DNA of 64,000 bases from an uncultured Chloroflexia bacterium. Lineage in GTDB: Bacteria > Chloroflexota > Dehalococcoidia > DSTF01 > JALHUB01. The notes under the pieces were generated by a model that worked only from the letters and a program-made list of their open reading frames with translations, did not search any database and was not told the origin of the DNA. Positions 23,135-44,861 of this stretch are shown in pieces (the stretch's first letter is position 1; each line of letters starts with the position of its first letter). Location of the stretch: assembly GCA_963842845.1 (NCBI GenBank), contig CAWJHZ010000007.1, positions 8,342 through 72,341 on the forward strand, in the 5' to 3' direction. The translations under genes were made by a program, and so were the position numbers.

Positions 23135-23173
23135 AGTGCGCAAGTGGCCTGCCCCCGAAAACGAGTCCACCCT

Positions 23174-24025: not shown

Positions 24026-24057
24026 GTGCTCGACCGCAAGACCCCTCTTGGCCGGGC

Positions 24058-24336: not shown

Positions 24337-24677
24337 TTCAGATGCCCCCTTTCTTCGGCCCAGTATCCGATATTCCCTCGCTGAAGAGTAACATTGGATC
24401 TGGACTCGTTTTCGGGGGGCAGGTCAAAGACAGCGCCAGCAGTCCTCGCGGCTGTGGACGGTGAGGTCAAAGTACACCCACCCGCCGCAGTGGGGACAGC
24501 GCCGGCAGCCGATACTAGCCACACTCGGCAATGTCATTGTCCGAGTTTAGGAGGTGCCCACTCTTCGTGCAAGGCTGCGGCATGCCTCACAGCCCTCCAG
24601 GTTGACAGCCGTGCTATGATCCGCGTGATTCACTTTCTGCATTCCCAACCTGTTCACCTCTGCCAAGGAAGTGTGCG

Positions 24678-25247: not shown

Positions 25248-25417
25248 CCGCCCGTTCATGATCCAGCTAGACCGCCACGGCAATGTGTGAAACTGTCCAT
25301 GTGAGAACCGCCTCCGCTCAGGGGGAATTGGCCTAACCGACGGTTGACATCAGTGCTATAATCCTCTTGGTTCACTTCTGATTATCCCCGCCGACCCGCC
25401 AACAGGGAGGTTGTGCG

Positions 25418-26173: not shown

Positions 26174-26200
26174 CAATCCGCAGCGAAGACCGGCATCGCC

Positions 26201-26226
26201 GTGTGTGAAACTGTCCACGTGAGAAC
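26201..26226 (+). repeat. conserved 3' cassette element GTGTGTGAAACTGTCCACGTGAGAAC (one of five copies; others at about 25284, 27521, 29130 and an orphan at 39856)
   Basis: Exact or near-exact 24-26 nt repeat found 25-35 bp after the stop codon of each cassette gene. It is co-conserved with the last codons (CGCTGGCTCCACTAG) and a CAACCCGCAGC spacer. Confidence 0.7.
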
Positions 26227-26414
26227 AGGGTCATGGCAGGGAGAAGAGGGATGACTAACCGCTGATTGACATCCTCGCCCAACTCAGAGTACCTTGCGGG
26301 AGCCTGGGCAGGAGCAGTCCTCTGTCATGATGGCACAAGCGACTTGCGCTAGGCATCAGGTTACGATCTGCCGAAGTCGTCCCCGCCCTTGCTTCTCAAG
26401 AAAGGGATTTCAAC

Positions 26415-27494: not shown

Positions 27495-27668
27495 CAACCC
27501 ACGGCTAGACCGCTACAGCAGTGTGTGAAACTGTCCACGTGAGAACGCCTACAGGACAGGGTGAATTAGGCGCATTGACAAGGGTTCAAACGGTGCTATA
27601 ATCTCCGCATTGGTGGCTCGTTACTGATTATCCCCCGTCATGGATTCCCGCCCGATAAGGAGAGTTGA

Positions 27669-29108: not shown

Positions 29109-29465
29109 CAACCCGCAGCCAACACGGGAGTGTGTGAAACTGTCCACGTGGGCACCCACACCAAGGGAAGATGTTGTCACCGCCAGACGGTCTGCGGAAC
29201 AGGTGATCTGCCCCACAAGCCGCGCCTGTCCGCCGGCCACGCCCTGCGTGTTCAAGGACTTCTGGCAGGGCTGGCGGGCCCGAGATGTGAAAATGGATCT
29301 ATTCGCCACTTGACAAGCGCCTACAAGATGTTATACTCCGCTTTGCTGGTGGAAATTCCCTGAATCCCCGCCGAACTCGAAGTCCTCGCCAACAGAGAAT
29401 TTGTGTGGCGGCGAGTTCTTATTGCTTGAATGCCGCTTGCGCGGTTCCTATTCGGAGGTGGCGAA

Positions 29466-30530
29466 ATGACAAAGAGACTTCTCGTCGCGGCTATCATCTT
29501 CGGGTCTTTCATGGTATCGGCGGCCGGAACCACGGCCAGCCCAGCTTATGGTTTTGTCCAAGTCAGCGGAGGTCTGGACTACACATGTGCTATGGAGGCG
29601 AATGGCAGCCTCATTTGTTGGGGGGGAATCTACGGGGCGTCTTATCCCTTTGCGGATATGTTCAGCCAAATCAACGCCGGTGATGACCATGGTTGTGGAG
29701 TCAGAGTTGACGGTACCTTGGAGTGTTGGGGTGATAATTCCGTCGGGCAATCAACACCTCCCTCCGGCACCTTCACTCAAGTTAGCGCTGGCTTCCGGTT
29801 CACTTGCGGGGTAAGGACGAATGGTGTCATAGCCTGCTGGGGAGCCAATGATGAAGGTCAGTTGAACACTCCATCTGGCACGTTCGGCCAGGTAAGCGCT
29901 GGCGGCTACCATGCCTGTGGCTTGCGAACGGACGGGACTCTGACCTGCTGGGGTTGGGACAACTTTGGGCAAGCGTCACCTCCGAGCGGCACTTTCGGGC
30001 AAATTGATGCAGGATATGAGCAAACATGCGGAGTGAAGACTGACGGCACTATGGTTTGTTGGGGCAATAATCAATACGGACAGTCCACTCCGCCGGCGGG
30101 GACATTCACGCATGTCGCCTCAGGTTATATTCACACTTGCGGAATAAAGACCAACGGCACTATCGCTTGTTGGGGATACAATGGCTTTGGACAATCAACG
30201 CCTCCGTCTGGCGTCTTTGCTCAAATCGGGGCCGGGTACGACCATACCTGCGCCATAAACTTGAGCGGAGCAATTGCCTGCTGGGGAGACAATGAATCGG
30301 GGCAGGCAACGCCACCAGTACTGCCACCTCCCCCATCTCCGACACCCGGCAGCGTCGGCGGCAAGATACTGCTTCCTGTGGCGTTGGACCCTCAGCAAGA
30401 TTTCGATGGGGCAAGAGGAGCTTCTGGAGGGTCGGGTATCCCGCTGGCTGCGTGGCCTGTGCTGGCCAGTGCCCTGGGAGGCGTTTTGGCGGCGGCTGGC
30501 TGGCGTGCACGGAGGCGCTGGCTGAGGTAG
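29466..30530 (+). CDS. secreted RCC1-repeat (BLIP-II-like) beta-propeller protein, cassette E, with the same sorting tail
   Basis: RBS GGAGGTGG then ATG (MTKRLLVAAIIFGSFMVSAAG). Seven repeats of the form ..CG...DGT..CWG.N..GQ..PPSGTF.Q..AG. Tail VGGKILLPVALDPQQDFDGARGASGGSGIPLAAWPVLASALGGVLAAAGWRARRRWLR. Confidence 0.65.
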   Translation: MTKRLLVAAIIFGSFMVSAAGTTASPAYGFVQVSGGLDYTCAMEANGSLICWGGIYGASYPFADMFSQINAGDDHGCGVRVDGTLECWGDNSVGQSTPPSGTFTQVSAGFRFTCGVRTNGVIACWGANDEGQLNTPSGTFGQVSAGGYHACGLRTDGTLTCWGWDNFGQASPPSGTFGQIDAGYEQTCGVKTDGTMVCWGNNQYGQSTPPAGTFTHVASGYIHTCGIKTNGTIACWGYNGFGQSTPPSGVFAQIGAGYDHTCAINLSGAIACWGDNESGQATPPVLPPPPSPTPGSVGGKILLPVALDPQQDFDGARGASGGSGIPLAAWPVLASALGGVLAAAGWRARRRWLR

Positions 30531-30691
30531 CCCGATTCCAGCGCCTCGCGAAGACCGCTGTTGGGTCGCTCAAAAAAGCCATCGCGACCCCATATGACAC
30601 TAAGTGTGGATGTTGATGGCTAGGTTCGCCATTCCAGCCCAAGGCCGGGCCGCCCGACGAATGCCCCCTCGAGCGCCAGACCCGGCCTCAG

Positions 30692-33515
30692 CTACTGCGC
30701 CGGTTCCCGCTCAAGGTTGAGGCGCAGCAAGCGGGTGACGATCTCAGAATCCGACAGCGCGTCAGACGGCTCCTGCCACCCGTAAGCGGCGAACACCGCC
30801 TCGTCCAGCTTGCGATGCGCGTTTACCAGCCACATGGGGCGCTGGTTGTAGAGCTTCGTAAGCGTGCGGCGTTCTGACTTCTTCACGCCCGGCTTTTCCT
30901 CCGGCGCCTTCAGCCAGTTCTGGCGGGGCTCTTCCAACTCCCGCGCCGCCTCTGCGATTGCGCGCTGCTGCTCTGGCGATGGTCTTGGGAACGAGAACGT
31001 CTCGAAACAGGTTGTCGGGGTATAACGGAAACCGCTCTCCACTTCTCGCAACTGGGTGCCGGTGGCGCGCGCCCACACCTCATGAGCGCGGGAGTGCACC
31101 ACGCCGAAGAAGTAGTCATCATCGCGAGCGAAGACTATGGTGGCCTGGTTGCAGAGGACCTCGGGAGCCACCCAGACGAAAAGACGGTGCTTCGAGTGGC
31201 AGGGCGTGGCTATGAATCTCCACATGCCCTGCAACGCCCTTCTCATGTTTACCCTCGGCTCCCCGTAGATCCACCACCGGTCGGCGTATGCCTTACGTCT
31301 GTTTCTCTCGCGGATTGGCTTCACAACAGAGCGCAGGTGCTCGAAAGGCATTTCGTACTGGGCCGCTTGTTCCTCTCTTGTCCCAGGAGGGAAGTCGATT
31401 GTCCACAAGCCCCGTGGGCGCTGGACCAGATCGACGGCGCTCATCAAAGGTCTTACGATGTCGCTGTTTGGGCGCCCGTTAGGATTCCTAGACCTCAACA
31501 TGCGCCTGGCAAGTTCCGCCGAGATGTCAAACCCCGCCTTCGGTGACGGCCCTTGGAAGCAAATCCTCAGGTTCTCTCTAAGAGGTCGAGCCATCGTCAG
31601 AATCGACACCCGCCGTCAAGTTGGCGTTGATAACTGCAACTTGGTGCCCGTCGAGCGTCCGCTCTAGCTCTGAACCCTTGTCGAAGCCGAGCATCGAGAC
31701 GTGGACCGCCGCCCCGTCCAGAATCCAAGGCCTGTCCGAATAGGCCAAGAACATCTCGCCCGTCTCTTTTATCCGCTCAAGAACGCGCCTATTTGCGCCG
31801 CCCCGAATGCCCTGTGTTGCCAAGAGTCCTGCTCTGGTTGATCGTTCGTCGGCAATCATCTCACGTGCTTGTTCAAACCAATAACAGCAGAGGTCGCTGA
31901 AATGGGGAAGCCGGTCACCATACAGCGAGAACAACGCTTCGACGTATTCGCCGCCAAGATGTTTGCGCAACAAGCTTCCCCCCAAGAACGGAGGATTTCC
32001 GACGATTACGTCCGCTTCCGGCCACTCAGGGATACGCGGCTGGCTGGGGTCCGAGAGGTCAACGATTGCGTCCCTCATCTCTATCTGGTCGAGCGGTTGA
32101 AGGATGGGAGTCTCGTCCGTGAACGGGATCACGTTGCGGTGCTTCCATTGCAGGTAGCCTATCCAGATGACTATAGACGCCAGCTCGCGGGCGTACTCGT
32201 TGATCTCGATGCCCATCAGCTGGCGCGGGTGAACGCGCGGGGAGAGTGGAACGTCGTATGACGCCGCGAAGGCGATAACCTCCTTCTCCAGAGCCTTGAG
32301 GAGAGCCAGGGAGACGTAGAGGAAGTTGCCGGAGCCGCAAGCGGGGTCAAGGACACGGATGGTCGCCAGCCGCTCATGAAACGTCTTTAGAGCGCCGGCG
32401 ATGCGGCTGTGCAGCGTCTCCGGCTTGAACCGCCGGGAGGCCGCGTTCTCCGATAGGTCCTCCGCCGCCACCTTGATCTGGTTCCATTCCCGTCTGAGAG
32501 GGGCCATCAGCACCGGCTCCACTATTAGCTCGATGTCGACACGAGACGTATAGTGCGCGCCGACCTGTCGCCGCTTCTCACGGTCAATAACGCGCTCAAA
32601 AAGAGTGCCGAAGATTGACGGCTCGACATCGGCCCAGTTGAGGCTGTCCAGGTCCTCCAGCAGGCGGACATGCTCGCCGTGGATCTCGTCGGGAACGTCG
32701 CTGTCCTCGAACAAGCGGCCGTCGAAGTAAGGGACGGAGTGCATGAGGAACTTGCCGCCCTTCCGCATGACCTCGAAGAGCTCCGACAGGTTCTCGCGGA
32801 ATGCGGCGGGGTCGTCCTTGTTGACGTTGATGACCTCGCTAAAGGTCTCGCGCGGCAACAGGCCCACGTCTGTCGCGAACATGCAGAACATGACCCGCGT
32901 CACGAAGCGAGCGATGCGCATGTCCTCTACCTTCCATTTGCGCAGGTCATCGGTGATGCGGCCGAAGAGCTTGGCGGCCTCCTGTGTGATCTGCTCGGTA
33001 GTCCGGAGAGGCTTCAGGCGCTCGGGCTCCTCGAAGAGCGCCTTCAGGACTTGGAGGGCTGTGAGCTTCGGGGCGTCGGCAGCGGGCCCGCCGTAAGTGG
33101 TGACTTCGACCGGCTCGTCCAGCGCGATGTCGGCGTTGCGGAAGCGGTAGATCCAGGTCTCTGTGTTGGTCCAGTTGGTGTGGACTTCGAATCGTTCTAT
33201 GTCGCAGACAACGAGCAGCGGCGGGTTACCCAGCGCCTCGCGATACGTCTGAACCTGCTTGTAAGCAATCCCGAGGTCTTTGTGTTTGCCCTTGTACTCC
33301 CAGGCGAAATGGTTCTTGAGCCATACGTCCGCGAACCCGTCGCCGTCAGGTTTCTTCGCGCCTTTCTCAAACGCGAAGAAAGCGCCGCTGGGGTCGGCCT
33401 CGTTCGGGGTCTGCTCGTTGAGCAACCGGCACAGGTCAATGAAGTGCTCCTGCGCAGCCGCATTTTCGCTCTGGGTGGAGGCGGCCCACTTCTTGACGAA
33501 TCCAAGGGAGTCCAT
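30692..33515 (-). pseudogene. second MmeI-family Type IIL RM gene (paralog of 12442..15228), interrupted by a +1/-1 frameshift near 31580-31610 in the TRD; possibly inactive or a sequencing artefact
   Basis: Two overlapping ORFs (31578..33569 and 30692..31609) together reproduce the full architecture: nuclease block, VLDPACGSGNFL, GNPPF, TRD, conserved C-terminus. ATG at 33515 is preceded by TATAAT 7 bp upstream. The frame switches at ACGGCGGGTGTCG (GGG run). Both frames align with copy 1 on either side of the switch. Confidence 0.7.
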
Positions 33516-33879
33516 GAATGCGATTATAGCGAAGGATCGTGGAACCGCCAATGTGGGCTTTTGCCGCAAGGAGTTATTTCAGGACCGACACGATCAGGTC
33601 ATCGTGTGCGGTCCCGCGCACAACGGCTCGGGATGTCGTCAGGCGACGCCCGCCTCGACAGACAGCGCATGAACGGTTCGCGAGTCGAGCGCGCTGACCG
33701 CGTCACGCCGCGCACGCCAGTTGGGGGTTCTTGCGCTCGCCCGACTACGATCTCTTCGATGTCGCCCCTCACCCTCGGCTGGGATAATCGCCATGCGAAA
33801 CCAAGCAAACAGTTGGGGAAGGCGTCTGTCGCCTTCCCCAGCTAGTGTCTTTGGTTTAGATGTGGCTTCTACCGGTTGA

Positions 33880-35247
33880 TTACCACCACCACCAGAAGTG
33901 ACGGTCAGGCCCGTAGCACTGCCTGTCGTGCGACCATTGAATCACGAAGCCAGTGCAAACCTTCGGTCGCGACGGCGTGGCCGTAGGCGTCTTGGTCGGT
34001 TTCGGCGTCGCCGTTTGACATTGACATGGCGGCTTTGTTGTCGGCGTGGCCGTGTGTGTCGGGCTCGGCCCTCCAGATGGAGTCGGTGTGGCCGTAGGCG
34101 TCTTGGTCGGTTTCGGCGTCGCCGTTTGACACGGCGGCTTTGTTGTTGGCGTCGCCGTGACCGTGTTTGTAGCCGTCGGCGTCGCAGTATCGGTCGGCGT
34201 GGCCGTGTCCGTGGCCGTCGGCGTCGCAGTATCGGTCGGCGTGGCGGTGTCCGTGGCCGTCGGCGTCGCAGTATCGGTCGGCGTGGCCGTGTCTGTGGCC
34301 GTCGGCGTGGCCGTGTCTGTCGGCGTGGCCGTGTTCGTAGCCGTCGGCGTGGCCGTGTCTGTCGGCGTGGCCGTGTCCGTGGCCGTCGGCGTGGCCGTGT
34401 CTGTCGGCGTGGCCGTGTCCGTGGCCGTCGGCGTCGCAGTATCGGTCGGCGTGGCCGTGTCCGTCGGCGTGGGCGTGGGCGTGTTCGTAGCCGTCGGCGT
34501 GGCCGTGTCCGTCGGCGTCGGCGTGGCAGTATCGGTCGGCGTGGCCGTGTCCGTAGGCGTCGGCGTGGCTGTATCCGTGGCCGTCGGCGTGGCTGTGTTC
34601 GTGGCCGTCGGCGTGGCTGTATCCGTGGCCGTCGGCGTGAACGTACTCGTCGGCGTCGGCGTGAGCGTCTGCACCGCCGACTGAGACCCACTGGAGCCAC
34701 CTTGGTCTCCCACGGGGCAGTTTCCAGAGCCGCTCGAACAGGTGTCCTGCCACGTCAATGTTGCATTGTCGGTCAATGGGTTCGGATCATTGGCCTGAAC
34801 GGTGTAATGGCTTGTCGTGAAGGTGATAGATGCGCCGAACGGGAGCGTACATAGCGTCTGCCCACCGTTGCAGGATGCTCCGCCAGTGAAAGTGATGCTT
34901 GCGCCCGGCAGCAGGTTGCCCGAAGCTACGTCGCCTGAGCCAGCATGTACGACATCCACCACTGATGTGATCGTCAAGGTGTCACTGGCCTGGTCAACCG
35001 CGTTCGAAACGGAGAACGTGCAGCTGTACGGGTCACCCACATTCGTAGGACTGGCGCAGCCCTTGAGGAAGCTGATGCCGTGGAGGGGTCCCGAACCGGT
35101 GTTCGCCTGAGCCCAGGGGGACCAAATGGCCGTCGCGGCGATCATGGCTAAGCCCACCGCCAGGACCAAGGCGGCTCCTCCCCGTCTTCCGATCACCCGG
35201 GCAGCGCGCCTTGTGCTGTGGTCGTCGCTCGTATACCTCATTTCCAC
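33880..35247 (-). CDS. secreted protein, paralog of cassette B domain, with a long ([14 protein letters not shown])n linker; lacks the sorting tail and ends ...HFWWWW
   Basis: The N-terminal 200 aa are about 85% identical to 25418..26000 ([10 protein letters not shown]...[16 protein letters not shown]). Then about 180 aa of perfect PT-type repeats. Two KPPCQ segments at the C-terminus. Confidence 0.55.
34150..34690. repeat. tandem DNA repeat (about 42-bp unit, roughly 12 copies) encoding the [14 protein letters not shown] linker
   Basis: Periodic GCCGTCGGCGTGGCCGTGTCCGTGGCCGTCGGCGTCGCAGTATCGGTCGGCGTG... read directly. It produces mirror-image artefactual ORFs on both strands (VAVGVAVS..., [10 protein letters not shown]...). 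Confidence 0.7.
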
Positions 35248-35691
35248 CTCTTCTACGATGTGGCGCGGCGTTCCAATGCCGCGGAGTCCGACTGTTGCTG
35301 GACGCCGTCATCACCAGCCTCCGCCCTTCCACCGATCATAAGCACCAGATCGTTTCGGGTATATCGGTATTTTCCCTTATTTGCTGCGGTCGTCTTTGAC
35401 CAAAGCAAAGCCGGGACGACGCGGTCCTGGCGTCCGCTTCTGGCTACGCATCGATAGCGTATCGCCTTGACTTCCCCGCACACTAATGCATCATGGTGGG
35501 CGCCTTAGACCGGCTTCAATGGCGCGATCAGTGGCGCGCCTCCCGCGAACCCGGCGCTTGAGACATCCATGGCGACGGGCGGAGACGCGACTTTGGCGTG
35601 AAGCTTGAAAGATGGACAAGGGGCTGACAGCGAACTGAGCTCACGGTTACCTAGGCAGCAACTGGGTCGGCGAATGGCCCGCAGCGGATAG

Positions 35692-37671
35692 TCAACCAGT
35701 CGGCGCCCCGGGCCCGTAGATCACGACGTCATAGAATGCGCCGTAGGTGAGACCTAGCTTGCCACCGCTTGGGCCATCCGGGTCGACAATGCTGTAGGAG
35801 TCGCCTGATTTGCCTGAAAGTACGATCCAATGCGGTATGCCTAGCTTGCCCTTCACTTCAACGATCGGCGGTCTCCCCTGAGACAGCGCGTTGTCGATGG
35901 CCTGTTCCCTTGCCGCCAGATCATATTGGCTTGTCCGCAGGATCGTCGGCTCGCCGACATATCCACCAGTTGAGTTGGCGGCGACCTCCCAAGAGATTTT
36001 GCAGCCTCCGTAGCCACCGTGGGCCGTGAGCCATCTGTTGAGATTGTCCGGGCTGACCGGTCCGTATCCCTGAGTCAGCTGAGGCGTTCCGTAGTAGGCG
36101 AGCACATCTGCAACGGATGTCAGCGCGCACCCCGCGACTGCAACAGTAGGGCACCCGGACTTGCCAGCGAGATGATCATTGCCCCATCCCAGATCCCTTT
36201 GCTTGAAATCGGGTACCCCTGTGTACTTGATGGTGGCATAGTCGTACCCAGTGCCCAGGCCAAAGGAGTCACCTGTCACGTAGACATTGCCCGCGCCGTC
36301 CACGGCTATGGCCCGGGGTTCGTCAATTCCCTTGCCGGGGCCGTTGTAGCGTTGTGCCCACTGCTCGCTCCCTTTTGGCCCGTATTTGATAGTCGCGAAC
36401 TCGTCCTCGCCGCTAGACACAAACGAGGAGCCGGTCACGTATGCGTTGCCTAGTGCATCCACAGCGATGGCCGAGGCCACGTCATCGCCGTTGGCCGGGC
36501 CGTCATAGCGGGCCACCCACTGCCTGTCGCCGTCCGGCCCGTACTTGATGGTGGCGTAGTCGTCGTGACCACCAGAACCTCCAGAGCCACCTGTGACGTA
36601 GACATTGCCCGAACCGTCCACGGCAATGTCGTTGCCTGAATTCCATGCGTGACGTGCATCCGGACCATGGTAGTAGCGCTCCCACACCATATGCCCGTCT
36701 GCCGCTCCGAACTTGACGGTTACACAGTTGACGGCGGCACCTTCGACCCAGCCTGTCACGTACGCGTTCCCCAGAGCGTCGACAGCAAGAGCCTGGACGC
36801 CCCCCTGGAAACCCAGGGGTGGATAGTAACCCACCCACAGCAGGCTCCCGTCCGGCCCGTACTTCACGATGGCGAAGTCGTAGCCATAGTTCGCGGAGGG
36901 ATCAATATCATAGCCCTGACCCGCCACGTACACGTTGCCAGCGCTGTCTATTGCGATGTCCCGGGCGTGGTAATCGTAGCCGTCCGGGAGCCTGAAGCGA
37001 CGTGCCCACAACTCGCTCCCGTCCGGTCCGTATTTGACGGTGGCGTAGTCGTACAAGTTGTCGGGGCCCTGAGATGACCCCGTCACATATGCGTTCCCTT
37101 GACGGTCCACGACCAGGCCAACAGGCCGATCGGACCCAGCACCTCCACTGCTGCACGGGCCGGAGCCGTTACCAGGGCCGTTGCATCGTCGCGTCCACAG
37201 CTCCCTCCCGTCCGGTCCGTACTTTATGGTGAGGTAGTCATTCCCCGTATCGACGCCCTCTGACAAGCCTGTGACGTACACGTTTCCCTGGTTGTCGACT
37301 GCCACAGCGACGGCCTCGTCAGAGCCGTTGGCCGAGCCGTTGTATGACTTTGTCCACAGAACCGTCCCGTCTGATGCGTACTTCGCTGTGGCGTAGTCCG
37401 TTCCGCTGACAGAGCCTGTGGAGTAGCCTGTGACGTATACGTTGCCTGAGTTGTCCACAGCAACCGCCGCGCTACGATCGTCGCCACTGGCAGAACCGTC
37501 GTAGCGGGCCACCCAATCTCGCGTAACCACGCCGCTGCCGTTCGCGACGAGGCTCTCGCCAGGGACTGGACCGGCACGGGCACGCGAAGGGCCCAATAGC
37601 AGCCCGCCGACAACCGCCAGCACAGAGAAGAGGTATTGTAGGGTGGTTCGCCCAATTGGAGCGTGCATCAT
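35692..37671 (-). CDS. secreted SBBP-type beta-propeller repeat protein with a C-terminal putative papain-like/C39-like cysteine peptidase domain
   Basis: Signal peptide. At least eight repeats YDG...DD.A.AIAVD..GNVYVTG.S.G. The C-terminal region has CPTVAVAGCALTSVADVLAYYG ... GIPHWIVLSG (candidate Cys and His). Domain call is tentative. Confidence 0.45.
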   Translation of the reverse strand: MMHAPIGRTTLQYLFSVLAVVGGLLLGPSRARAGPVPGESLVANGSGVVTRDWVARYDGSASGDDRSAAVAVDNSGNVYVTGYSTGSVSGTDYATAKYASDGTVLWTKSYNGSANGSDEAVAVAVDNQGNVYVTGLSEGVDTGNDYLTIKYGPDGRELWTRRCNGPGNGSGPCSSGGAGSDRPVGLVVDRQGNAYVTGSSQGPDNLYDYATVKYGPDGSELWARRFRLPDGYDYHARDIAIDSAGNVYVAGQGYDIDPSANYGYDFAIVKYGPDGSLLWVGYYPPLGFQGGVQALAVDALGNAYVTGWVEGAAVNCVTVKFGAADGHMVWERYYHGPDARHAWNSGNDIAVDGSGNVYVTGGSGGSGGHDDYATIKYGPDGDRQWVARYDGPANGDDVASAIAVDALGNAYVTGSSFVSSGEDEFATIKYGPKGSEQWAQRYNGPGKGIDEPRAIAVDGAGNVYVTGDSFGLGTGYDYATIKYTGVPDFKQRDLGWGNDHLAGKSGCPTVAVAGCALTSVADVLAYYGTPQLTQGYGPVSPDNLNRWLTAHGGYGGCKISWEVAANSTGGYVGEPTILRTSQYDLAAREQAIDNALSQGRPPIVEVKGKLGIPHWIVLSGKSGDSYSIVDPDGPSGGKLGLTYGAFYDVVIYGPGAPTG

Positions 37672-37925
37672 GCTGCTCCCGCGGCTTTTGAGAGTGTCCC
37701 GATCCTAGATGATGTCCTTTCGATCCCCTTATCGGAAGAAAGGGCCGAATCTAGAGCGGGTGTAACCCTGTAGACCTGCTCAGCGATGCCGGTAGGTGGA
37801 GAGTGGAGCGATCATTGACTAGCAGAGTCTCTCGCTGCGAGCATCTGCTCTTGAGGACTGGCTTGACTTCCGCGCACACTAATGCAATATGGTCGTGATT
37901 CTACGTTTGCGAAGGAGAAACGACC

Positions 37926-38858
37926 ATGACAGCAACCATCATCCCCATCGGCGAGGAAGCCGCTGGCTGGGAACGTGCTCTGTACGCATTCCTTGCCGAA
38001 AAGGAGCGACGCAGCGGCTCAAGACGAACAGTCGAGGGTTATTCCAGAACCCTCCAGCACTTCTTCGGGGCCATCGGCAAGCCGCCCGACCGGATCACGA
38101 GTCAGGAGGTCTTCGCCTGGGCCTACGGCAAGGGGTTGTCTGGCAAGGAGCCCTCGGCAATCACGATCGGGGCCAGGCTTGCCTGCCTCAGTTCCTTCTA
38201 CCGCTTCCTGATCCGCATGGAGATCGTCTCCGCCAACCCCTGCGACCAGATCGAGCGACCCAAGCCCTCGCCCAGCCCACCGCGGGGGATCAGCGCCGAG
38301 GGGATCAGAAAGCTGCTCACCGTCATCCCCGAGACGCCGGCCGGTCTGCGGGACCGAGCCATCATCCTCACACTTGTCTTGACGGGTCGGCGCCGCGCAG
38401 AGGTCTTCAACCTGAAGGTCGGCGACCTCATTCGAACCGATGGCCTCTTCTACACCTACCGCGGCAAGGGAGGCAAGCAGGGGAAGCGGGAACTGCCTTT
38501 ACCCGCATTCGAGGCGATTAAGGTGGCGCTGGCCGCATTCGCCAAGGACCTCGACACGATGAAGCCCGGGGAGTCACTCTGGCCATCGCCCGGTCGGAGC
38601 GGCACTGGCATCACCAGCGGCACCTTCTATGGCAACCTGCAGCGCTACCTGCGCAAGGCGGGGCTGCCGCCCGCCGGCGTCCACATCTTCCGCCACAGTG
38701 CCGCCAAGCTACGGCGAGACGTCGGAGAGTCGGTGGAAGATGTCAGCCTTTTCCTCGACCACAGCTCGCTGGCGGTCACGACGGTCTACCTGCGGAGGCT
38801 CGAGGGGCAAGAGGACAGGAATTGGCAGAAGGTGGCGATGGCACTGGGTATCTGTTGA
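37926..38858 (+). CDS. tyrosine-type site-specific recombinase / phage integrase family
   Basis: 310 aa. Catalytic region ...GLRDRAIILTLVLTGRRRAEV...HIFRHSAAKLRR (HxxR)...LAVTTVYLRRL (Tyr). Its N-terminus and 5' flank are duplicated at 21426-21715. Confidence 0.8.
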   Translation: MTATIIPIGEEAAGWERALYAFLAEKERRSGSRRTVEGYSRTLQHFFGAIGKPPDRITSQEVFAWAYGKGLSGKEPSAITIGARLACLSSFYRFLIRMEIVSANPCDQIERPKPSPSPPRGISAEGIRKLLTVIPETPAGLRDRAIILTLVLTGRRRAEVFNLKVGDLIRTDGLFYTYRGKGGKQGKRELPLPAFEAIKVALAAFAKDLDTMKPGESLWPSPGRSGTGITSGTFYGNLQRYLRKAGLPPAGVHIFRHSAAKLRRDVGESVEDVSLFLDHSSLAVTTVYLRRLEGQEDRNWQKVAMALGIC

Positions 38859-38965
38859 ATACAGCGACTGAGCAGTCACAGAGACGAATCGCACAGGGCC
38901 GGCCGCGAGGCCGGTCTTCTCGTTCTAAGCGCGCGGTCGATAATGCCAGTAGGAAGGAGCTAGAG

Positions 38966-39322
38966 ATGACGAACGCCGCCAGGGATGAAAAGGACATCGA
39001 GCCGCTCTCGGACGCTGGACAAGTCCGCAACGACATGGTTTCTTGGGTCGCGGACTTGGCGCAACAGCATAAAGAGGACGCGGCCAATCCGGACTCAAGA
39101 CTCTCTCTCCTACACCTAGACGAGGGGCATCTGCGTCATGCCTCTCCCTCCCACGTCAACGAGTGGCATCTGATCCAGGCCTCCCGATTGGGGAAATTGG
39201 CGGACTTTCTCGAAGCCCTGCCAGACGACGACCCGCTCATCCAGTCAGAGACACGGCAGGCCATGCGAAAGTGGCACGACCAACGGATCGAGGAGTGGTT
39301 CGACTATATGGCCAAGTTTTGA
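38966..39322 (+). CDS. hypothetical protein
   Basis: RBS AGGAAGGAG, 8 bp, ATG. 118 aa, acidic. No recognisable motif. Confidence 0.35.
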   Translation: MTNAARDEKDIEPLSDAGQVRNDMVSWVADLAQQHKEDAANPDSRLSLLHLDEGHLRHASPSHVNEWHLIQASRLGKLADFLEALPDDDPLIQSETRQAMRKWHDQRIEEWFDYMAKF

Positions 39323-40100
39323 GCGGGGGAGAGCGGCGACGACGCTCAACCAGTACCGTGCCTATCATCGAGGCCAAAACGTCGATTATCTCACTGAGAG
39401 GCGAGAAAGGTGTCAGGTGTGCGTAGACTCGGAGTGCTGGCAATAGGTACAGCTATTCTTGGCTGGGTGGTTAACAACCTGCTGAGAACGGATGAGGACA
39501 AGGCTGTTTCATCAGTGATGGGGCCGCCACGCCACGAAGATGCGAATTCTAACGGGGCGACTTTCCCGCGAGAAGCGGAACCAGCCTCTCTAGCAGCTGA
39601 CCTCCCTCCTGGACAAGCAGACCCTCTCGACGAACCTGCGAATGTCATTCCCCTGGAAGCCATGCGCGCGCATCCCCCCCGGAATCGTCCGCCTTCGCCG
39701 CCGAACGAAAACGGAAATGCGAGAATGAGACGCGCTCGAAATGCCGTCGATAAACGCTTCCGGCAATTGCCGGAAAAGGGTGATCGACGCAAGAGAGGCG
39801 CAGCTTAGCCATCGCGGGTCTGGCTCCACTGGCAGCCCGCAGCTAAGACGCGACCGTGTGAAACTGTCCACGTGCGAACACCTACGGTAACCCCTGCAAT
39901 GAGACCGCTCACTAATAGGCGGCCTCCCTTGAAGACGTTGGCGGACGCTTGGAGTGTGACGCTGGCGTCCTCATTGCGAGCGAGTATTCAGATAAGCTTG
40001 GTTTCTATTCGAGATGCGCTACCAGTTTCTATCTGCGTCGTGGTAGAATCGAGCGCAGGATGAGGCGGGGCATCCGAATCTATCCTCGGAGGTCAACGAT

Positions 40101-41312
40101 ATGCCTCGCCACTACTCGCCTCGCGACTTTCTTCGGCTAGCTCCGAATGCGCTGCTCGCCCGCTACTTTCACGAACGCAACCTTCTGACTGATCTCGATA
40201 TCGATTCTCTTGCGGAAACCGATGTGCAGCCCATCTTTGAGGCCTTGACGGCACTCGCGCCTGAGCTGTCCGCTCCGGTCAACAGCGACTTTGAGCTCGT
40301 CACAGCTCTGGCAGACGAGCAAGGCATTCAGGCTATTCTCGACGAAGCCCAGTATCACGAATTCGACTTTACCGACGCCTTCGATTCCATGCCGGGCTTC
40401 TTCGACAAGGCGCTGTGGACGTTCCTCGAGCACCCAAGAATTGCGGCGGTTGCGCGCCTGCTGTCTGAAGTCGAGCGCTATCCGACCGCCTCCTGGGTCC
40501 GCCGACGCGACGAGGCATTCGGGGCTGAGCCACGTGACGATGACGGCGCGCGAGCCGAACTTTCAGGAGCGCTCGGTTCATACTTCCATATGAAGGAAGG
40601 ACGAGGAAGCGAGTGTTTCGTCGACGTGTACCGCCGCGGGACGAAACTATACTACTTCGCCTTCCCTGAGGACTATGCCCAGACAAGCTTGGAATACCTG
40701 GCGGGCAAACTCGAACGCCGAGCGCATCGGCCCGTCTTCCAGGTGGTCTTCGTCTGCGATCCGGCAACGGGAACGCTCGATACCTACTTCCGTGGCCAGA
40801 AGAAGACACGCCTAGAGATCGAGACGAAATTCTCCCGCGTGATCCTCGGCAGGGAACTCGACCCCTGGAAGGACGACCGCGTCTACGATCTGAACGCCTT
40901 TAAGGGACGCGGTGTGACGTTCGTGTACGACCCCACCTCGGGAATCCACGACATCCGCGTGAAGCAGCTCCGCCTCACACTGATCGGGGGCGGCTCGCGG
41001 CGCATTACTCTAGAGGCTGATCCGAGCGCAGCCAAAGAGGCAGTCCACGACATGCTGGCCACGCTCTTCGCGTCTGATAGCGGTCACGCTCATGGTGGAT
41101 GGTCGCCTGCGTTCGCCAACGTTACCCGGGTCGGGCTACAAGTGTATTTCTCGTCCGGCAGCCGCAGGGGCCGGAACACCAAGACCTTCTACCTGACTTA
41201 TCCCAACGGTTGCACGCTCGGACACCACGGGCGGGACGCCATTCTCCGACAGATGCTGATCGACTCTAAGATAGAGACAATCAGCCACGCGCCCGCACGC
41301 GAGAAAGCATGA
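40101..41312 (+). CDS. hypothetical protein (403 aa), first gene of a coupled two-gene module inside the integrated element
   Basis: Long ORF with good coding periodicity. Its stop overlaps the start of the next ORF (ATGA). I cannot assign it to any family. Confidence 0.5.
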   Translation: MPRHYSPRDFLRLAPNALLARYFHERNLLTDLDIDSLAETDVQPIFEALTALAPELSAPVNSDFELVTALADEQGIQAILDEAQYHEFDFTDAFDSMPGFFDKALWTFLEHPRIAAVARLLSEVERYPTASWVRRRDEAFGAEPRDDDGARAELSGALGSYFHMKEGRGSECFVDVYRRGTKLYYFAFPEDYAQTSLEYLAGKLERRAHRPVFQVVFVCDPATGTLDTYFRGQKKTRLEIETKFSRVILGRELDPWKDDRVYDLNAFKGRGVTFVYDPTSGIHDIRVKQLRLTLIGGGSRRITLEADPSAAKEAVHDMLATLFASDSGHAHGGWSPAFANVTRVGLQVYFSSGSRRGRNTKTFYLTYPNGCTLGHHGRDAILRQMLIDSKIETISHAPAREKA

Positions 41313-41947
41313 TCGCCGAACTGGCCGACCAACTCCTTCAACGCGCTCGGTCCAACGTCCCGAACGACCGAATTGTGACTGCCGACGAGGTGACGCGGTG
41401 GCCCGAAGGAATGCTCGACGCGCTTCTGCGCGACGGTATTGTGAAGGAAATCCAGCCCGCCACATCCGTCGAGTGCGATGCCTGCTATGAAGGGCATGCC
41501 GAGGTCGTGGAGTTCATCGAAGAACCGCCGGGCTCACCATTGCGAGCGTATATCGCGTGTCCCGAGTTCGGTCGAGTGAAGGTGGACCCGCAGAGGATGC
41601 GGCGCTGGGAACTCGTAGCAAACGAACCAGAGACCGCCGTGTTCTTGAGTTCTGACGCGGTCATCGACGACGGTCCGAAGAGCATCTCTCGCTTCCGCCA
41701 TTCACCTGACTTCCGGTCGGTGAACCTCGATGACCACGAGTATTCTTTGACAGGCCGACAAGCCCAAGTCGTCGAGTTCCTCTACCAGATGTACCAGAAC
41801 AAAACACCAGAGGTGAGCCAGAGCCTTGTCCTTGAGCACCTCGAGTCCAAATACACCGAGCTCCGGTACGTCTTCAAGAACAACCCCGCCTGGGGGACAC
41901 TGGTCGTTTCCGGAAAAACGAAGGGGACTGTCCGCCTCAACCTCTAG
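41309..41947 (+). CDS. hypothetical protein (212 aa) with CxxC...H...C putative zinc-binding segment
   Basis: Translationally coupled to the upstream ORF. SVECDACYEGHAEVVEF...YIACPEF suggests a small zinc finger. No family recognised. Confidence 0.45.
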   Translation: MIAELADQLLQRARSNVPNDRIVTADEVTRWPEGMLDALLRDGIVKEIQPATSVECDACYEGHAEVVEFIEEPPGSPLRAYIACPEFGRVKVDPQRMRRWELVANEPETAVFLSSDAVIDDGPKSISRFRHSPDFRSVNLDDHEYSLTGRQAQVVEFLYQMYQNKTPEVSQSLVLEHLESKYTELRYVFKNNPAWGTLVVSGKTKGTVRLNL

Positions 41948-42155
41948 TTCCCGCGAAACTCCCGTCTACGGTGCGGGGTAGTTTGAAACCAACCTCCTAG
42001 ACTGGTCTCGTGGACAAACACGAGAGGCCGCTGCGACTTGCTATTGTCCCGCAGGTAGAGCGTGTATACACACCTGACCGCGAGGCGATGCGGGAAGCCC
42101 TGCGAGTGGTGCTGGGACTCCCCAAGCGACCGTCCTTCGGTCAGGAGGTACCGGC

Positions 42156-43751
42156 GTGACAGAAGAGCAAACCCCTGTGGCGGTCTACATGCGGGTCTCA
42201 AGCGACGACCAGCGGGACCGCGAGACGATCAAGACGCAGCGTGAGGCTATCGACCGCTTCCTCGCGCAGAACCCTCAGTACGTCGTCTACCGCTACTACG
42301 AGGACGACGGCGTCTCCGGCACTGTCCCCATGGCCGTGCGACCCGGCGGCGCTCAAATGGTCGCCGGCGCCAAGGCCGGCAAGTTCTCCAAGATCATCGT
42401 CCTGCGCGCCAGCCGACTTGGCCGAGAGGAGATCGACCTGCTCACAACCTACAACCTGTTCGTGGACGCGCTGGACATCGAGATCATCGGCGTCGCTGAG
42501 CCGCTTGGCGACCGGACGATGTTCGGCTTCCAGTCCATCATGGCCGGCTATGCCCGTCGTCAGTTCCTCGCTGACTCGGCTCGGGGGATGGACAGGGCGG
42601 TGCGCGAAGGTCGCTTCACCGGCGGGATCGTGCCGACTGGCTACAGAGTTGAGGGCCGTAGGCAGACGGCCAGGCTTATCCCCGATGACACGATCGTCTG
42701 GGGCGATTGGACCGCGGTAGACCTGATCCGCCGCATCTATCACTGGCTGGGCGTTGAAGGGAAGAGCTGCCGCTGGATCTCCCGCGAACTAAACTCGCTC
42801 GGCGTCCCCACCGCGTACCAGCGAGACGGTCGCGGCGTGCGCGGCAAGCGTACGCAGGAACTGTGGCGGCCGGGACGGATCCGGCAGTTGGTCGTCAACC
42901 CGGTGTACATGGGAACGCTCCTCTATGGGCGCCGCAGAAGTCGTTACTCGAAGAGGACCGAACTAATCCCCGGCGCCGTGCCGGCGCTGGTGTCCAGCGA
43001 GCTCTGGGAGGCTGCGCAGCGAACCCTGGCCGCCAACCGTATCTGCGCCAAGAACACGCAAAGAGTCTACCTTCTCCGCTCGGTGATGGTCTGCGGAGTC
43101 TGTGGCCTGCACTACGGCGGAACTCCCGGAAGGGACGGTATCTCTTGGTACCGCTGCAACGGCCAGCTCGTCGAGCGGGGCAGGATCGATGGCAAGTGCC
43201 CGGGCAAGTCCATTCGCTCGGACTGGCTAGAACCTATCGTCTGGGATGACATCGAGCGATGGCTGCGCAACCCCGGCGATCTCCTCGACGAGATCAACGT
43301 CGACGAGGAGCAGGAGAACCAGCGGGCGATTATCGAAGCGGAGCAAATCACTCTTCAGAAAGCACTAGGGGGATTAGCTGAGCGACGCAAGAGGGCAATC
43401 GACCTCCACGTCCGAGGACGCATCCAGGAAGCCGAACTGGATGAGATTCTGGAAAACCTACACAAGGAGAGAAGCGCCCTGGAAGAGCGTCTCGCCCGCA
43501 TCGCTCTCCCCGTCGAGGAGGAAATCGAAACGCTGGACCCGGACCTGCTCGCCAAGCTACGGCGACGCCTGAATGCGGGCCTCGACGATGCCACCCGTCA
43601 CGAGGTCGTCAGATTGCTCGTCCGCCAGATTCTGGTAGACACGGTTTTCGTCGAGAATGGACGGAAGATGCTCAGAATCCGGATTGAGTACCGATTCCCT
43701 GCTGTACCACCGTCTAGCAGGGGCACGGGTTCATCGCCGCGACGAGCATGA
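42156..43751 (+). CDS. large serine recombinase (resolvase/invertase N-domain, recombinase domain, zinc ribbon, coiled coil)
   Basis: [12 protein letters not shown] catalytic Ser motif. ...RLGRE... Zinc ribbon [10 protein letters not shown]...YRCNG...C. C-terminal coiled-coil region. 531 aa. Confidence 0.8.
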
Positions 43752-44778
43752 AGTTGCTGGGGAACGTGGTCGTGCCGTGGGCGCGGCTGATGGTCACCAT
43801 GCGGTCCTCCATCGGCTGGCGCAGCACCTCGAGGACGGTCTGTCCGAACTCCGGCAGCTCGTCGAGAAACAGCACGCCGCGATGGCTCAGCGTTATCTCG
43901 CCCGGGCGCACCTGCCGTCCGCCGCCGACAAGCCCCGCGTGTGACACGGTGTGGTGCGGCGAGCGGAAGGGCCGTCGTCGGATCAGCGGCGTGTCAGCCG
44001 GCAGCAGCCCGCCGACGCTGTAGATCTTCGTCACCTCCAGCGCCTCCTCCGGGCTCATCGGCGGCAGTATCGACGGCATCGCGCGGGCAAGCAGCGTCTT
44101 GCCGCTTCCCGGCGGGCCCGTCATCAGCAGGTTGTGGCCGCCCGCCGCGGCGACCTCCAGCGCGCGCTTGACGTGCTCCTGTCCCTTGATGTCGGCGAAG
44201 TCCGCGCCGTCCCAGACCGGCTCCTCGACCGCGACGTCGAGCGGCCCGGCGACGAACGGCGCGATAGGCTCGATGCCGGCCAGATGCGCCGCAAGCTGCG
44301 CCAGCGACTTCACAGGCAGCACCGTCACGCCTTCGATGAGCGCGGCTTCCGCGGCGTCGGCCTCCGGCACGTAGACCGTCTCGAGACCGCGTTCTTTCGC
44401 CAGCGCCACCATCGACAGGATGCCGTGGGCGTGGCGCACCTGCCCGTCCAGCGCCAGCTCGCCGAGAAAGAGCGCGTTCGAGAGGTCGGCGACGACCTGC
44501 TGCGACGCGAGCATGATGCCGACGGCAATCGGCAAATCGTAGGCCGGGCCTTCCTTCCGAACGTCGGCGGGCGCCAGGTTGACGGTGATGCGCCGCGACG
44601 GGAACTGGAGGCCGGAGTTGCGCACCGCCGAGCGCACGCGCTCCTTCGCCTCCTGGACGGCGGTGTCGGGCAGCCCGACGATATAGAAAGCGGACAGTCC
44701 GGAGGCAATGTCGACCTCGACTTCGACGACGGCGCCTTCGAGGCCGACAACGGCGCAGGATAGTACTTTGGCGAGCAT
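43714..44778 (-). pseudogene. comM: yifB/comM-family Mg-chelatase-like AAA+ ATPase, 3'-truncated: the reading frame ends right after the NPCPC motif where the serine-recombinase element begins
   Basis: N-terminal Lon-like domain plus AAA+ core ([21 protein letters not shown], Walker [10 protein letters not shown]). Stops at ...AAMNPCPC*, whereas family members continue for about 150 more residues. The 3' end overlaps the recombinase gene end by about 38 bp. Confidence 0.65.
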
Positions 44779-44861
44779 GCGCCCATTTATCGCACATTCA
44801 TGCTACGTGGGACAAGGGGCTTGGGCACCGGAGGGACCGTGTTTCTCCCGCCGTTCCCCGT

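Follow-up and report, generated by a model that had tools for sequence, protein, structure and literature searches.

A large serine recombinase element in the comM gene of an uncultured Dehalococcoidia bacterium, probably a decayed remnant

Known elements in comM and the locus studied here

Elements of the type described in this paper are already known, and Mg-chelatase/ComM genes are the top target of large serine recombinases (LSRs). According to Durrant et al. 2022 (PMC10083194), 12.4% of the predicted site-specific LSRs hit 'magnesium chelatase/ATP-dependent protease' genes, and competence genes are enriched among the targets. The sr1WO group of Wolbachia phage WO comprises LSR prophages in a magnesium chelatase gene, with the gene halves flanking the prophage, and in some Wolbachia strains the prophage was later rearranged and the chelatase halves were separated (PMC9203015). 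In Gram-negatives, comM is an insertion hotspot for the AbaR islands of Acinetobacter and for elements in Aggregatibacter, Mannheimia, Francisella and Pseudomonas, and the gain proposed for comM-inactivating elements is less curing by natural transformation (PMC4774983, PMC12378983). The first-pass annotation of our locus called comM a classical integration hotspot.

The stretch of DNA that we analysed, here called the window, is 64 kb long and comes from a metagenome-assembled genome of the Dehalococcoidia. We consider it about 80% probable that it holds a decayed LSR temperate-phage-like element in comM, the far end of which has since been lost. The Gram-negative elements inactivate the same gene, but their insertion positions in comM differ. 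AbaR is a Tn7-like transposon, and the other Gram-negative comM elements use tyrosine-type integrases. With the Wolbachia WO sr1WO prophages the window element shares the type of target gene, while the host phylum differs. The window element also resembles those in PMC10083194, in which a site-specific LSR disrupts a conserved ComM-family site and many divergent LSR clusters share the target; its host is of the Dehalococcoidia, and it differs from them in the loss of attL and in an LSR reading frame that runs through attP. Among cultured phages the nearest serine recombinases are those of the Paenibacillus larvae phages Harrison and Paisley, yet they are distant (34.5% identity over 96% of the protein). 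The features of the window are collected in Table 1.

Table 1. Positions of the features in the 64-kb window
Feature	Position	Strand	Remarks
Second integration hotspot	21428-22139	.	tRNA-Arg(CCG) at 22064-22139 (-) and tyrosine recombinase relic
GNAT acetyltransferase	22514-23134	+	opens the chromosomal DNA of the far side; adjoins or is close to the comM 3' end where relatives have an intact comM
IS3-family insertion sequence, 1282 bp	23145-24426	-	orfA and orfB, TG...CA inverted repeats, AAG on both sides
Variable region	24427-37861	.	may be element cargo or captured DNA
Type IIG (MmeI-like) restriction-modification gene	30692-33569	-	frameshifted
Xer-like tyrosine recombinase, 310 aa	37862-38858	+	gene at 37926-38858 plus conserved 64-bp leader
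403-aa protein	40101-41312	+	phrog_37634, unknown function
212-aa protein	41309-41947	+	relatives have it immediately upstream of their LSR; matches no family
Large serine recombinase, 531 aa	42156-43751	+	ORF and Pfam; apparently intact; convergent with comM
attR hybrid site	43699-43748	.	P arm, putative central CA and comM-derived B' arm
comM/yifB 5' fragment, 354 aa	43714-44778	-	codons 1-354 of about 508; ends ...AAMNPCPC and stop

The junction between the recombinase gene and comM

The comM of the window is a gene fragment. Its product contains the ChlI and AAA+ Mg_chelatase domains of the ComM/YifB family and ends at residue 354, short of the full AAA+ module and Mg_chelatase_C domain of a protein of about 500 aa: ChlI (PF13541) is matched in full, Mg_chelatase (PF01078) only at positions 1-161 of 207, and Mg_chelatase_C (PF13335), which is found in the 508-aa relatives, was not found by Pfam in the window ComM. 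The NCBIfam model YifB (TIGR00368) gives 437 bits over model positions 1-350 of 499. The first-pass annotation had noted that the ORF stops at 43714 right after ...AAMNPCPC, where homologs go on, and indeed the intact homologs (508 aa, 90-92% identity) read on past NPCPC with ...NPCPCGFYGDPTKEC... It had also proposed a comparison with an uninterrupted comM of relatives. Such genes exist at loci L004, L005-L007 and L092, with 90-100% protein identity to P0002, and the window comM is 82-94% identical in DNA to the intact loci L004, L005 and L092 up to 43717-43718, where the homology breaks at the junction. A tblastn search of the 64-kb window with residues 341-508 of a 508-aa homolog (E<=10) matched only the 14 residues before the comM stop, so that the 3' part is absent from the window, as the earlier reading had it. 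Because the end of the AAA+ domain and the Mg_chelatase_C domain are missing, we infer that the ComM fragment is inactive unless the 3' fragment persists elsewhere in the genome; the role of the comM product as branch-migration helicase of natural transformation would be lost with the truncation.

On the other side of the junction stands a protein with the domain order of a large serine recombinase, a catalytic-serine resolvase domain (Resolvase PF00239, residues 8-153, E=5.7e-21) followed by recombinase (PF07508, 189-293) and zinc-ribbon (Zn_ribbon_recom PF13408, 306-366) domains. It matches the integrase family phrog_95 (E=1.1e-82) and keeps all 49 invariant residues of a 33-member alignment, in which the YxRVSSxxQ motif, R13, S15 and Q19 are invariant. 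The protein is a predicted serine integrase of the attP x attB type. Its best NCBIfam match, to the XisF model, is weak (54 bits versus a cut-off of 375). A tblastn search of a phage collection with the LSR returned eight records named Wolbachia, all below 60% identity, and a scan of viral_contigs with the LSR as single-sequence query gave no match. An LSR that is still intact is slightly unexpected for an old, immobilised remnant.

The LSR and comM ORFs overlap by 38 bp (43714-43751), which confirms an earlier statement that the last 38 bp of comM coincide with the 3' end of the LSR gene. The last 9 or so LSR codons and the stop are comM read antisense (...GTGSSPRRA and stop). Such a tail is present in about 79 of the 120 LSR homologs, 66 by pattern and 13 by eye, and the call was checked by translating intact comM antisense.

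The attachment sites can be read from this overlap and from the relatives. The P arm of attR carries the motif CTGCTGTA at 43699-43706, and the B' arm, derived from comM, is GGGTTCATCGCCGCGAC. In attP an 11-bp inverted repeat (CTGCTGTAGTT/AACTACAGCAG) encloses 30 bp with CA at the centre, and the symmetry of attP in L008 places the crossover dinucleotide CA/TG probably at 43724-43725, where the first Cys codon has its TG. The host-derived comM DNA probably ends at 43724-43726. The codons CCC-TGC-TAG (43714-43722) at the end of the fragment are element-arm DNA; with the crossover at 43724-43725, the terminal C-P-C-stop of the truncated ComM would therefore be element DNA that mimics attB. The reciprocal arm is carried by attL in L002, L003 and L097 and by attP in L008, L088 and L104. 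This P' arm has the form ..CGYGTG.AGGTCAGAACTAC.. and runs with the LSR tail as CGYGTGNAGGTCAGAACTAC..., an attB- or attP-type joint would have the form GGGACA followed by GGGGTTCAT, and the P' arm motif was not found in the 64-kb window. The attP (L008, L088, L104), attB (L004, L005), attL (L002, L003, L097) and attR (window and 17 further loci) sequences are related to each other as expected: they are short sites with imperfect dyad symmetry and hybrid attL and attR, as for serine integrases, and attB is uninterrupted in close relatives (L004, L005-L007, L092). In the window itself the element is not flanked by both halves of the target gene and has attR only.

The same junction is frequent. 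The LSR meets the 5' part of comM at the same codon in 16 GTDB species-representative Dehalococcoidia genomes, with a conserved P arm and fixed spacing, and in L001 the LSR abuts the stop of the short comM. The complementary comM 3' fragments occur in relatives as separate ORFs joined to the other element arm. In DAOULP010000114.1 the two parts of comM are 43.6 kb apart, with a Prim-Pol primase and a Terminase_4 small subunit beside attL; L097/L098 are family members of about 44 kb, and relatives have a Prim-Pol/D5 primase and Terminase_4 small subunit adjoining attL or attP. Several of the short ComM proteins and LSR homologs come from contigs of equal size. The intact comM of relatives, the homology break, the recurrent junction and the complementary attL, attP and attB sites together support the insertion of an LSR element into comM, which the first-pass annotation had put forward from the letters of the window.

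The LSR reading frame spans attP, and integration would therefore swap the last 17 or so LSR codons. The tail of the free form, excised or viral, is conserved (...TGTR..QNY(T/S)..RRV(V/I/L).(L/A) and stop), and in L008 the stop of this tail and the beginning of the primase gene overlap. In the integrated form about 10 residues of antisense comM take its place. At attL the tail codons stay in frame and are changed only synonymously, with 5 synonymous and 0 non-synonymous differences in 8 tail codons between L088 and L003, and 2 and 0 between L008 and L002. The same read-through design is seen in a sister LSR type at tRNA-Arg(CCG). Mycobacteriophages reportedly possess an integration-dependent immunity with attP inside the repressor gene. 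In both cases attP lies inside a coding sequence, so integration alters a protein C-terminus, but the mycobacteriophage gene is a repressor and the integrase a tyrosine recombinase, whereas in the Dehalococcoidia clade the gene is the LSR itself. It seems doubtful, though conceivable, that integration serves as a built-in switch of the LSR C-terminus, acting on stability or directionality and uncoupling the LSR from the replication genes. The tail swap is a small idea that is cheap to check.

The far side of the insert and competing explanations

At 22.0-23.1 kb the window contains the GNAT gene, a GDSL remnant and tRNA-Arg in the order and orientation in which they stand beside the comM 3' end in relatives; in L004 the GNAT gene is 14 bp past comM. 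L092 is a complete chromosome in which comM is intact; the window is collinear with it at 20535-21711, 21734-22436 and 22482-23133, and the next such block runs from 43717 to 44820. Since the chromosomal flank resumes at GNAT, collinear with relatives in which comM is intact, the insert is at most 20.6 kb long. It is without attL, without comM-3' and without the primase and terminase genes found at that end in relatives. Where the chromosomal flank and the insert meet, an IS3 copy lies no more than 10 bp from the joint; the matching AAG on both of its sides fits a simple insertion rather than an IS-mediated deletion. The first-pass annotation had suggested that the element is either more than 40 kb long or has a rearranged far side, and this flank and the IS3 at the joint speak for the rearranged far side rather than for the greater length.

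No match to the 403-aa or the 212-aa protein was found in PADLOC, NCBIfam or Pfam. Several relatives also have the 403-aa protein in the interval from the tyrosine recombinase to the LSR (30-72% identity), and the 212-aa protein has a conserved C-terminal domain of about 85 aa (35-67% identity). Across elements whose LSRs share only 36-86% identity, the tyrosine recombinase is 75-92% identical, and Dehalococcoidia genomes have multiple copies of it. The variable region encodes PD40, Kelch, RCC1 and SBBP propeller proteins along with a lipoprotein and a repeat protein; in a metagenome scan the SBBP protein found only relatives, at 46% identity or less. The ORF in which an 87-bp match of positions 24428-24514 to L093 falls is Arg-rich and doubtful. 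Neither primase nor terminase nor structural genes were found in 24427-37861, and a look for replication, packaging and structural genes in 24427-43714 gave none, so the insert lacks the genes by which a prophage would be recognised. Nearby, the second hotspot includes a 284-bp relic of a second tyrosine recombinase copy (21428-21711). We dropped the idea of a tyrosine recombinase integrating beside a Lactamase_B gene, as L092 has at this place tRNA-Arg(CCG) and a second LSR with its 3' end overlapping it.

We suggest that the window shows the integration-module end of a Dehalococcoidia temperate-phage-like element. The circular element would have carried attP within the 3' end of its own LSR gene, and attP would have recombined with an attB of about 45 bp lying over a run of comM codons. 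Integration would have left comM in two pieces, the 5' fragment directly next to the LSR at attR, which is present, and the 3' fragment at the far end, at attL. A later loss of the far end may have removed attL together with comM codons 355-508 and the native LSR tail, as well as the phage genes that relatives have there, among them those for the primase and the small terminase, and the chromosomal flank with GNAT and tRNA-Arg would now be joined to the remnant through the IS3. With attL gone from the locus, the remnant would not be precisely excisable there by the LSR.

Other explanations account for parts of this pattern. Instead of being deleted, the 3' fragment of comM may have been carried elsewhere, together with the element's left part, by inversion or translocation between IS3, tyrosine-recombinase or MmeI-like copies. 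The window has the repeats for this (the IS3, the remnant of an IS3 end at 12209-12348, a pair of tyrosine-recombinase copies and two inverted MmeI-like genes), and rearranged LSR prophages with split Mg-chelatase halves are known in Wolbachia wRi and wAna (PMC9203015). We nevertheless regard relocation as unlikely: no C-terminal ComM fragment from a 617-kb contig was among the best 120 hits of the protein search, and the flank and comM-5' still face each other as in the ancestral arrangement, a layout that simple inversion between window repeats does not produce. An inversion between the two MmeI-like paralogs was rejected because reversing it does not restore the ancestral order. An intact element of more than 43.7 kb, whose attL and 3' fragment of comM would be situated further left than the window reaches, would fit the 43.6-kb span of one family member and the failure to find attL in the window. 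It would also turn GNAT, GDSL and tRNA-Arg, and further along PFL, all of them at 11-23 kb, into cargo, yet in relatives these genes flank comM-3' in conserved order and orientation and are chromosomal in L004, L005 and L092, which makes so long an element very improbable. Little more weight can be given to a chimeric join at the IS3 repeat that hides a complete prophage of the true genome. The genome was assembled from a metagenome, the joint falls on the IS and the frameshift in the MmeI-like gene may be a sequencing error; the IS, on the other hand, has both inverted repeats and identical 3-bp flanks, and the contigs of relatives, which stem from projects of this type, are long-read assemblies on a megabase scale.

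An excision-competent regulatory switch that restores comM, like the Listeria comK phage, B. subtilis skin or Anabaena fdxN/XisF, would suit the intact LSR with its weak XisF match, and the intact elements of relatives could in principle act in this way. The skin/SpoIVCA and fdxN/XisF elements excise precisely and restore their gene, whereas in the window remnant attL and the comM 3' half are missing from the locus, and no recombination directionality factor was recognised by sequence, the 212-aa and 403-aa neighbours matching no characterised family; for this genome we find such a switch hard to credit. The least probable reading, with next to no chance of being right, is a short ComM that is a natural variant of the lineage or the product of a simple nonsense mutation, the LSR being a mere neighbour. 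The first-pass annotation had named common short YifB variants as the observation that would overturn it, and taken literally they are common, as this end point is shared by 17 of the 120 best ComM hits. They go back to insertions of this type and are not natural short forms, and 100 of the 120 hits have at least 500 aa; the extra tail of the ComM protein P0003 comes from read-through into the sequence of the window element, where TGG replaces TAG. The natural short form and the nonsense mutation are refuted by the loss of comM homology exactly at the junction, by the conserved LSR P arm that follows the stop and by the occurrence of comM 3' fragments as ORFs of their own, attached to the other arm. 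A decayed LSR element that has lost its far end is the reading that we retain.

Meaning for the Dehalococcoidia

For this genome, comM would be a pseudogene made by a mobile element, and the block from 23.1 to 43.7 kb is foreign or rearranged DNA and not core genome. The natural set of matched attB, attP, attL and attR sites, in which LSRs 36-86% identical share one target, may be useful for the study of integrase site specificity. Codon 351 of comM appears to be a heavily used landing site of LSRs in the Dehalococcoidia, and with it an uncultured lineage now joins the known pattern in which serine integrases favour ComM and other competence genes.

Disruption of comM by a serine recombinase element

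The comM/yifB gene of the window ends directly after its NPCPC motif and converges on the large serine recombinase (LSR) gene with an overlap of 38 bp, as the first-pass annotation had described, and the ORFs, Pfam matches and homologs agree with every particular of that description. The 531-aa product has the Resolvase, Recombinase and Zn_ribbon_recom domains of the LSR architecture. The 354-aa product matches ChlI and Mg_chelatase in Pfam, the latter up to profile position 161 of 207, has no Mg_chelatase_C match in Pfam, and covers positions 1-350 of the 499 of the NCBIfam YifB-family ATPase model. Among the 120 best ComM homologs, most of which carry the names of Dehalococcoidia or Chloroflexi MAG proteins, 100 have at least 500 residues. 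P0002 and P0009, the closest of the intact homologs (508 aa, 90-92% identity), run on past the window's stop. The annotation had also found no recognisable comM 3' part in the window, and a tblastn search of the window in which the last 168 residues of P0002 served as query recovered only the 14 residues before the stop.

Coordinates of the features, with the four attachment sites written in the direction of the LSR
Feature	Location	Strand	Description
LSR ORF	42156-43751	+	531 aa
comM/yifB ORF	43714-44778	-	354 aa
tRNA-Arg(CCG)	22064-22139	-	second integration hotspot, ~1 kb from comM flank
Tyrosine-recombinase gene relic	21428 onward, within 21428-22139		284 bp, 86% identical to 37862-38146
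IS3-family element	23145-24426		1282 bp, at the joint; TG...CA inverted repeats, orfA + orfB, AAG both sides
MmeI-like type IIG restriction-modification gene 1	12316-15228	+	
MmeI-like type IIG restriction-modification gene 2	30692-33569	-	frameshift at 31578-31609
attB	L005		GTCGCCGTAGAAGCCGCAGGGA-CA-GGGGTTCATCGCGGCGAC
attP	L008		CCCTGCTGTAGTTAGTTTCTCCCCGGG-CA-CGCGTGGAGGTCAGAACTACAGCAGAC
attR	window 43697-43748		CCCTGCTGTACCACCGTCTAGCAGGGG-CA-CGGGTTCATCGCCGCGAC
attL	L002		GTCGCCGTAGAAGCCGCACGGG-CA-CGCGTGGAGGTCAGAACTACAGCAGAC

Comparison with the uninterrupted comM of relatives (L004, L005-L007, L092; 82-94% identity) shows DNA homology from window 44819 down to 43717-43718, where it stops. 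Past this break the sequence is not random. Among the GTDB species representatives, 16 Dehalococcoidia genomes have a comM 5' fragment abutted at the same codon by an LSR homolog (36-86% identity), and the same junction is also found in several metagenome contigs. All these junctions contain the conserved arm TAC.G.TTCCCTGCTGTAG..., at a fixed spacing to the comM-derived GGGTTCAT.

One might ask whether short YifB proteins ending at this position are simply common in the lineage, which the first-pass annotation had named as evidence against an insertion. They are indeed common, with 17 of the 120 best matches ending at NPC(P)(C), but they are products of the same insertion and not natural variants. 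P0085 adjoins an LSR, the 14-residue extension of P0003 is exactly the element sequence of the window with TAG read as TGG, and several others lie on contigs equal in size to those of LSR homologs. The LSR tails give evidence that is independent of these short proteins. About 79 of 120 LSR homologs end in ...TG(R/T/K)(G/D)S(S/W)...A and a stop (66 by pattern and 13 by eye), and intact comM read antisense in the LSR frame gives the same tail (RDRGSSRRRA-stop in L005, TGKGSWRRPA-stop in L004).

Attachment sites and the recombinase tail

The reciprocal junction is present in L002, L003 and L097, where ...CTGCTGTAGTTCTGACCTCCACGCG precedes the comM codons from ~352 onward, and both arms are contiguous, as an unrecombined site, in L008 (an IMG/VR viral contig), L088 and L104. 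The attP site contains a perfect 11-bp inverted repeat (CTGCTGTAGTT/AACTACAGCAG) with 30 bp between its halves. On this symmetry the centre would be the CA at window 43724-43725, which in comM is the TG of the codon for the first Cys in N-P-C-P-C. Because attP and attB share ~9 bp around it, the crossover cannot be placed from the junction sequences alone. If the crossover is placed there, the final C-P-C-stop of the truncated comM ORF would be element DNA resembling attB.

In the LSR clade of the window the ORF runs through attP. The attP form ends in ...PGTRGGQNYSRLQRVVQV and a stop in L008, where this stop overlaps the primase start codon, and 25 of 120 LSR homologs have such tails. At attL the tail codons are still in frame with their stop. 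Between L088 and L003 the last 8 tail codons show 5 synonymous and 0 non-synonymous changes, and between L008 and L002 the tail codons show 2 and 0. Since the changes are synonymous only and this stretch lies outside the 25-bp half-site, they hint at selection for the protein sequence of a tail that is absent from the LSR once integrated. On the L088 contig (ERZ25074053, 139 kb), attP is intact inside the LSR gene, yet there are apparently chromosomal genes on both sides, with Lactamase_B on one and an Opp transporter on the other; this element would be kept, or have been integrated, by a route other than its LSR attP.

Other LSRs also land in comM. In the closest relative (L089, the same as L094; 7669-16231), an 8.6-kb element splits comM a second time near codon 197, equivalent to window 44183/44184, which makes this codon a second LSR landing site within the gene. 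The element encodes a different LSR, of 571 aa, together with a Prim-Pol/D5 primase and an HTH gene of its own. Distant LSRs (31-39% identical) on 36-63-kb IMG/VR viral contigs are found at comM codons ~341-356. Comparison of L021, L025, L026, L029, L040 and L042 with L011 and L048 showed that the comM 3' part follows some of these LSRs co-directionally, whereas others converge on the 5' part, so different LSR lineages use the same site in both orientations.

The far side of the insert

In L004, intact comM is followed after 14 bp by the GNAT gene, then by a GDSL lipase gene and tRNA-Arg(CCG); a pyruvate-formate-lyase-like gene lies beyond these. The complete 2.28-Mb chromosome L092, whose comM is intact and 92% identical, has the order Lactamase_B, tyrosine recombinase, 299-aa ORF, second LSR, tRNA-Arg, GDSL, GNAT, ~3 kb, comM. 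The window is collinear with L092 at 20535-21711, 21734-22436 and 22482-23133, the next block being 43717-44820, and the same flank is 91-95% identical to L002. From this collinearity and match, the chromosome resumes at the GNAT stop codon at 23134. The stretch from 23145 to ~43724 is thus inserted relative to relatives, and the ~0.5-3 kb expected to contain comM-3' is gone from the locus. The first-pass annotation had proposed that the element was either more than 40 kb long or rearranged; as the chromosome resumes at 23134 with the genes that flank the 3' end of comM in relatives (GNAT, tRNA-Arg), the comparison supports the rearrangement and not the length.

The joint is occupied by the IS3-family element. 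The AAG on both of its sides would fit a simple insertion (chance probability ~1 in 64), so the IS3 may have caused the deletion or may have arrived afterwards. An assembly error at the IS3 may also be involved. The missing comM-3' and attL may have been deleted or moved elsewhere.

A solo left-end fragment of an IS3-family element (12209-12348, 80% identical to 23145-23283), directly upstream of the first MmeI-like gene, suggests an earlier IS-mediated rearrangement; a MarR-like ORF nearby (11728-12129) resembles one in the L001 element. Directly upstream of comM, an IS200-like Y1 transposase gene (PF01797; 44897-45361) is another insertion specific to the source genome, because homology to L089 and L092 ends at ~44820. 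In L092 a relic of comM codons ~365-411 lies beside GNAT (15382-15522), 2.4 kb from the intact gene and separated from it by a 728-aa ORF without family match, and may be the scar of an earlier event.

The tRNA-Arg site of L092 (12328-13838) carries a 3.9-kb mini-element with a tyrosine recombinase, a 299-aa ORF and a 499-aa LSR of a second type, whose 3' end overlaps tRNA-Arg(CCG) antisense, just as the LSR ORF reads through into comM. A decayed copy of this element type is found at 21.4-22.1 kb of the window. The Xer-like tyrosine recombinase associated with the LSR elements is conserved between them at 75-92% identity, against 36-86% for their LSRs. Many Dehalococcoidia MAGs have several copies of its gene (GTDB loci L092-L171; 66-92% identity to that of the window): JALYKW01 has at least 9 loci, CAVWFD01 at least 8, and chromosome OY969584.1 has 3. 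As an LSR is missing from the 10 kb around most copies among these loci, the recombinase may be the sign of a separate mobile unit.

Element family, cargo and fate of the remnant

A complete family member is found in DAOULP010000114.1, where comM-3' and comM-5' are 43.6 kb apart (computed from contig ranges). Directly inside its attL are genes for an 879-aa Prim-Pol/PriCT primase and for the small subunit of a terminase (Terminase_4), and the same pair directly follows the LSR in L008. The start of L002 falls within a putative primase gene (read as such from zinc-finger and Toprim-like motifs), and L003 and L088 have ParB-methyltransferase, RAMA and further genes at the attL/attP side. On IMG/VR viral contigs of 35-63 kb, LSRs (30-39% identity) lie at one end, adjoining comM fragments. 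Given the primase and terminase at attL or the LSR and these viral contigs, the description that suits the family best is that of temperate phages or phage-like elements.

The window keeps only the LSR-proximal module, with the Xer-like tyrosine recombinase (37926-38858), small ORFs, a 403-aa ORF (phrog_37634), a 212-aa ORF and the LSR, an order that recurs in L098, L110, L114, L169 and L171. To its left, 24427-37861 contains secreted propeller proteins and the frameshifted MmeI-like gene, and no phage genes. Four other genomes (L113, L126, L129, L163) have an MmeI-like gene only a few kb from the tyrosine recombinase, and an RCC1-like gene precedes it in the closest relative, L089/L094; these neighbourhoods suggest that part of the region may be element cargo.

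Several repeats were observed in the window. The two MmeI-like paralogs are inverted; at protein level they share 82% identity across the N-terminal and methyltransferase part, and 61% where the target is recognised. The frameshift of the second reflects either a pseudogene or a sequencing error. A 455-aa ORF (33880-35247) consists of ~111-bp tandem repeats (33973-34663) and shows a strong compositional skew between strands (AT skew -0.42). The gene of a 251-aa membrane-anchored protein (25418-26173) contains, at 25543-25993, an inverted copy of the 3' part of this ORF (34648-35098) with 91.6% identity. Short intergenic repeats (45-85 bp, 77-93% identity), which could be terminator-like or REP-like, occur downstream of several genes (26138-26221, 27465-27541, 29073-29150 and 39820-39874; also 600-644, 7888-7956 and 11538-11592), one copy being inside the LSR module.

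The insertion of an LSR element in comM is an already known kind of event, seen here in an uncultured lineage and as a decayed copy. Durrant et al. (PMC10083194) report that 12.4% of predicted site-specific LSRs target magnesium chelatase/ATP-dependent protease (ComM/YifB) genes, and that competence genes are over-represented among LSR targets. In Wolbachia, most sr1WO prophages integrate in the magnesium chelatase gene through an LSR, and those of wRi and wAna were later rearranged, leaving the gene halves apart (PMC9203015). Insertions in comM, a recognised hotspot in many Gram-negative bacteria, have been interpreted as a means by which an element prevents transformation from removing it (PMC4774983, PMC12378983). 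The closest cultured-phage LSRs, of Paenibacillus phages Harrison and Paisley, are only 34.5% identical, and a structure search found no close solved structure for the window LSR.

We count as shown the architecture, the junction and its recurrence, the relationships among the sites and the synteny, whereas the crossover dinucleotide, the loss of ComM function and the immobility of the remnant are inferred. A circular element would have integrated when its LSR recombined attP with attB at CA/TG, splitting comM, and attL, comM-3' and the greater part of the element would have been lost in a later deletion or rearrangement. Because attL is absent at the locus, the remnant would not be precisely excisable by the LSR and comM would stay inactive. 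All 49 invariant alignment positions are present in the window LSR, which itself looks intact, and this suggests either that the element decayed recently or that something else maintains the gene.
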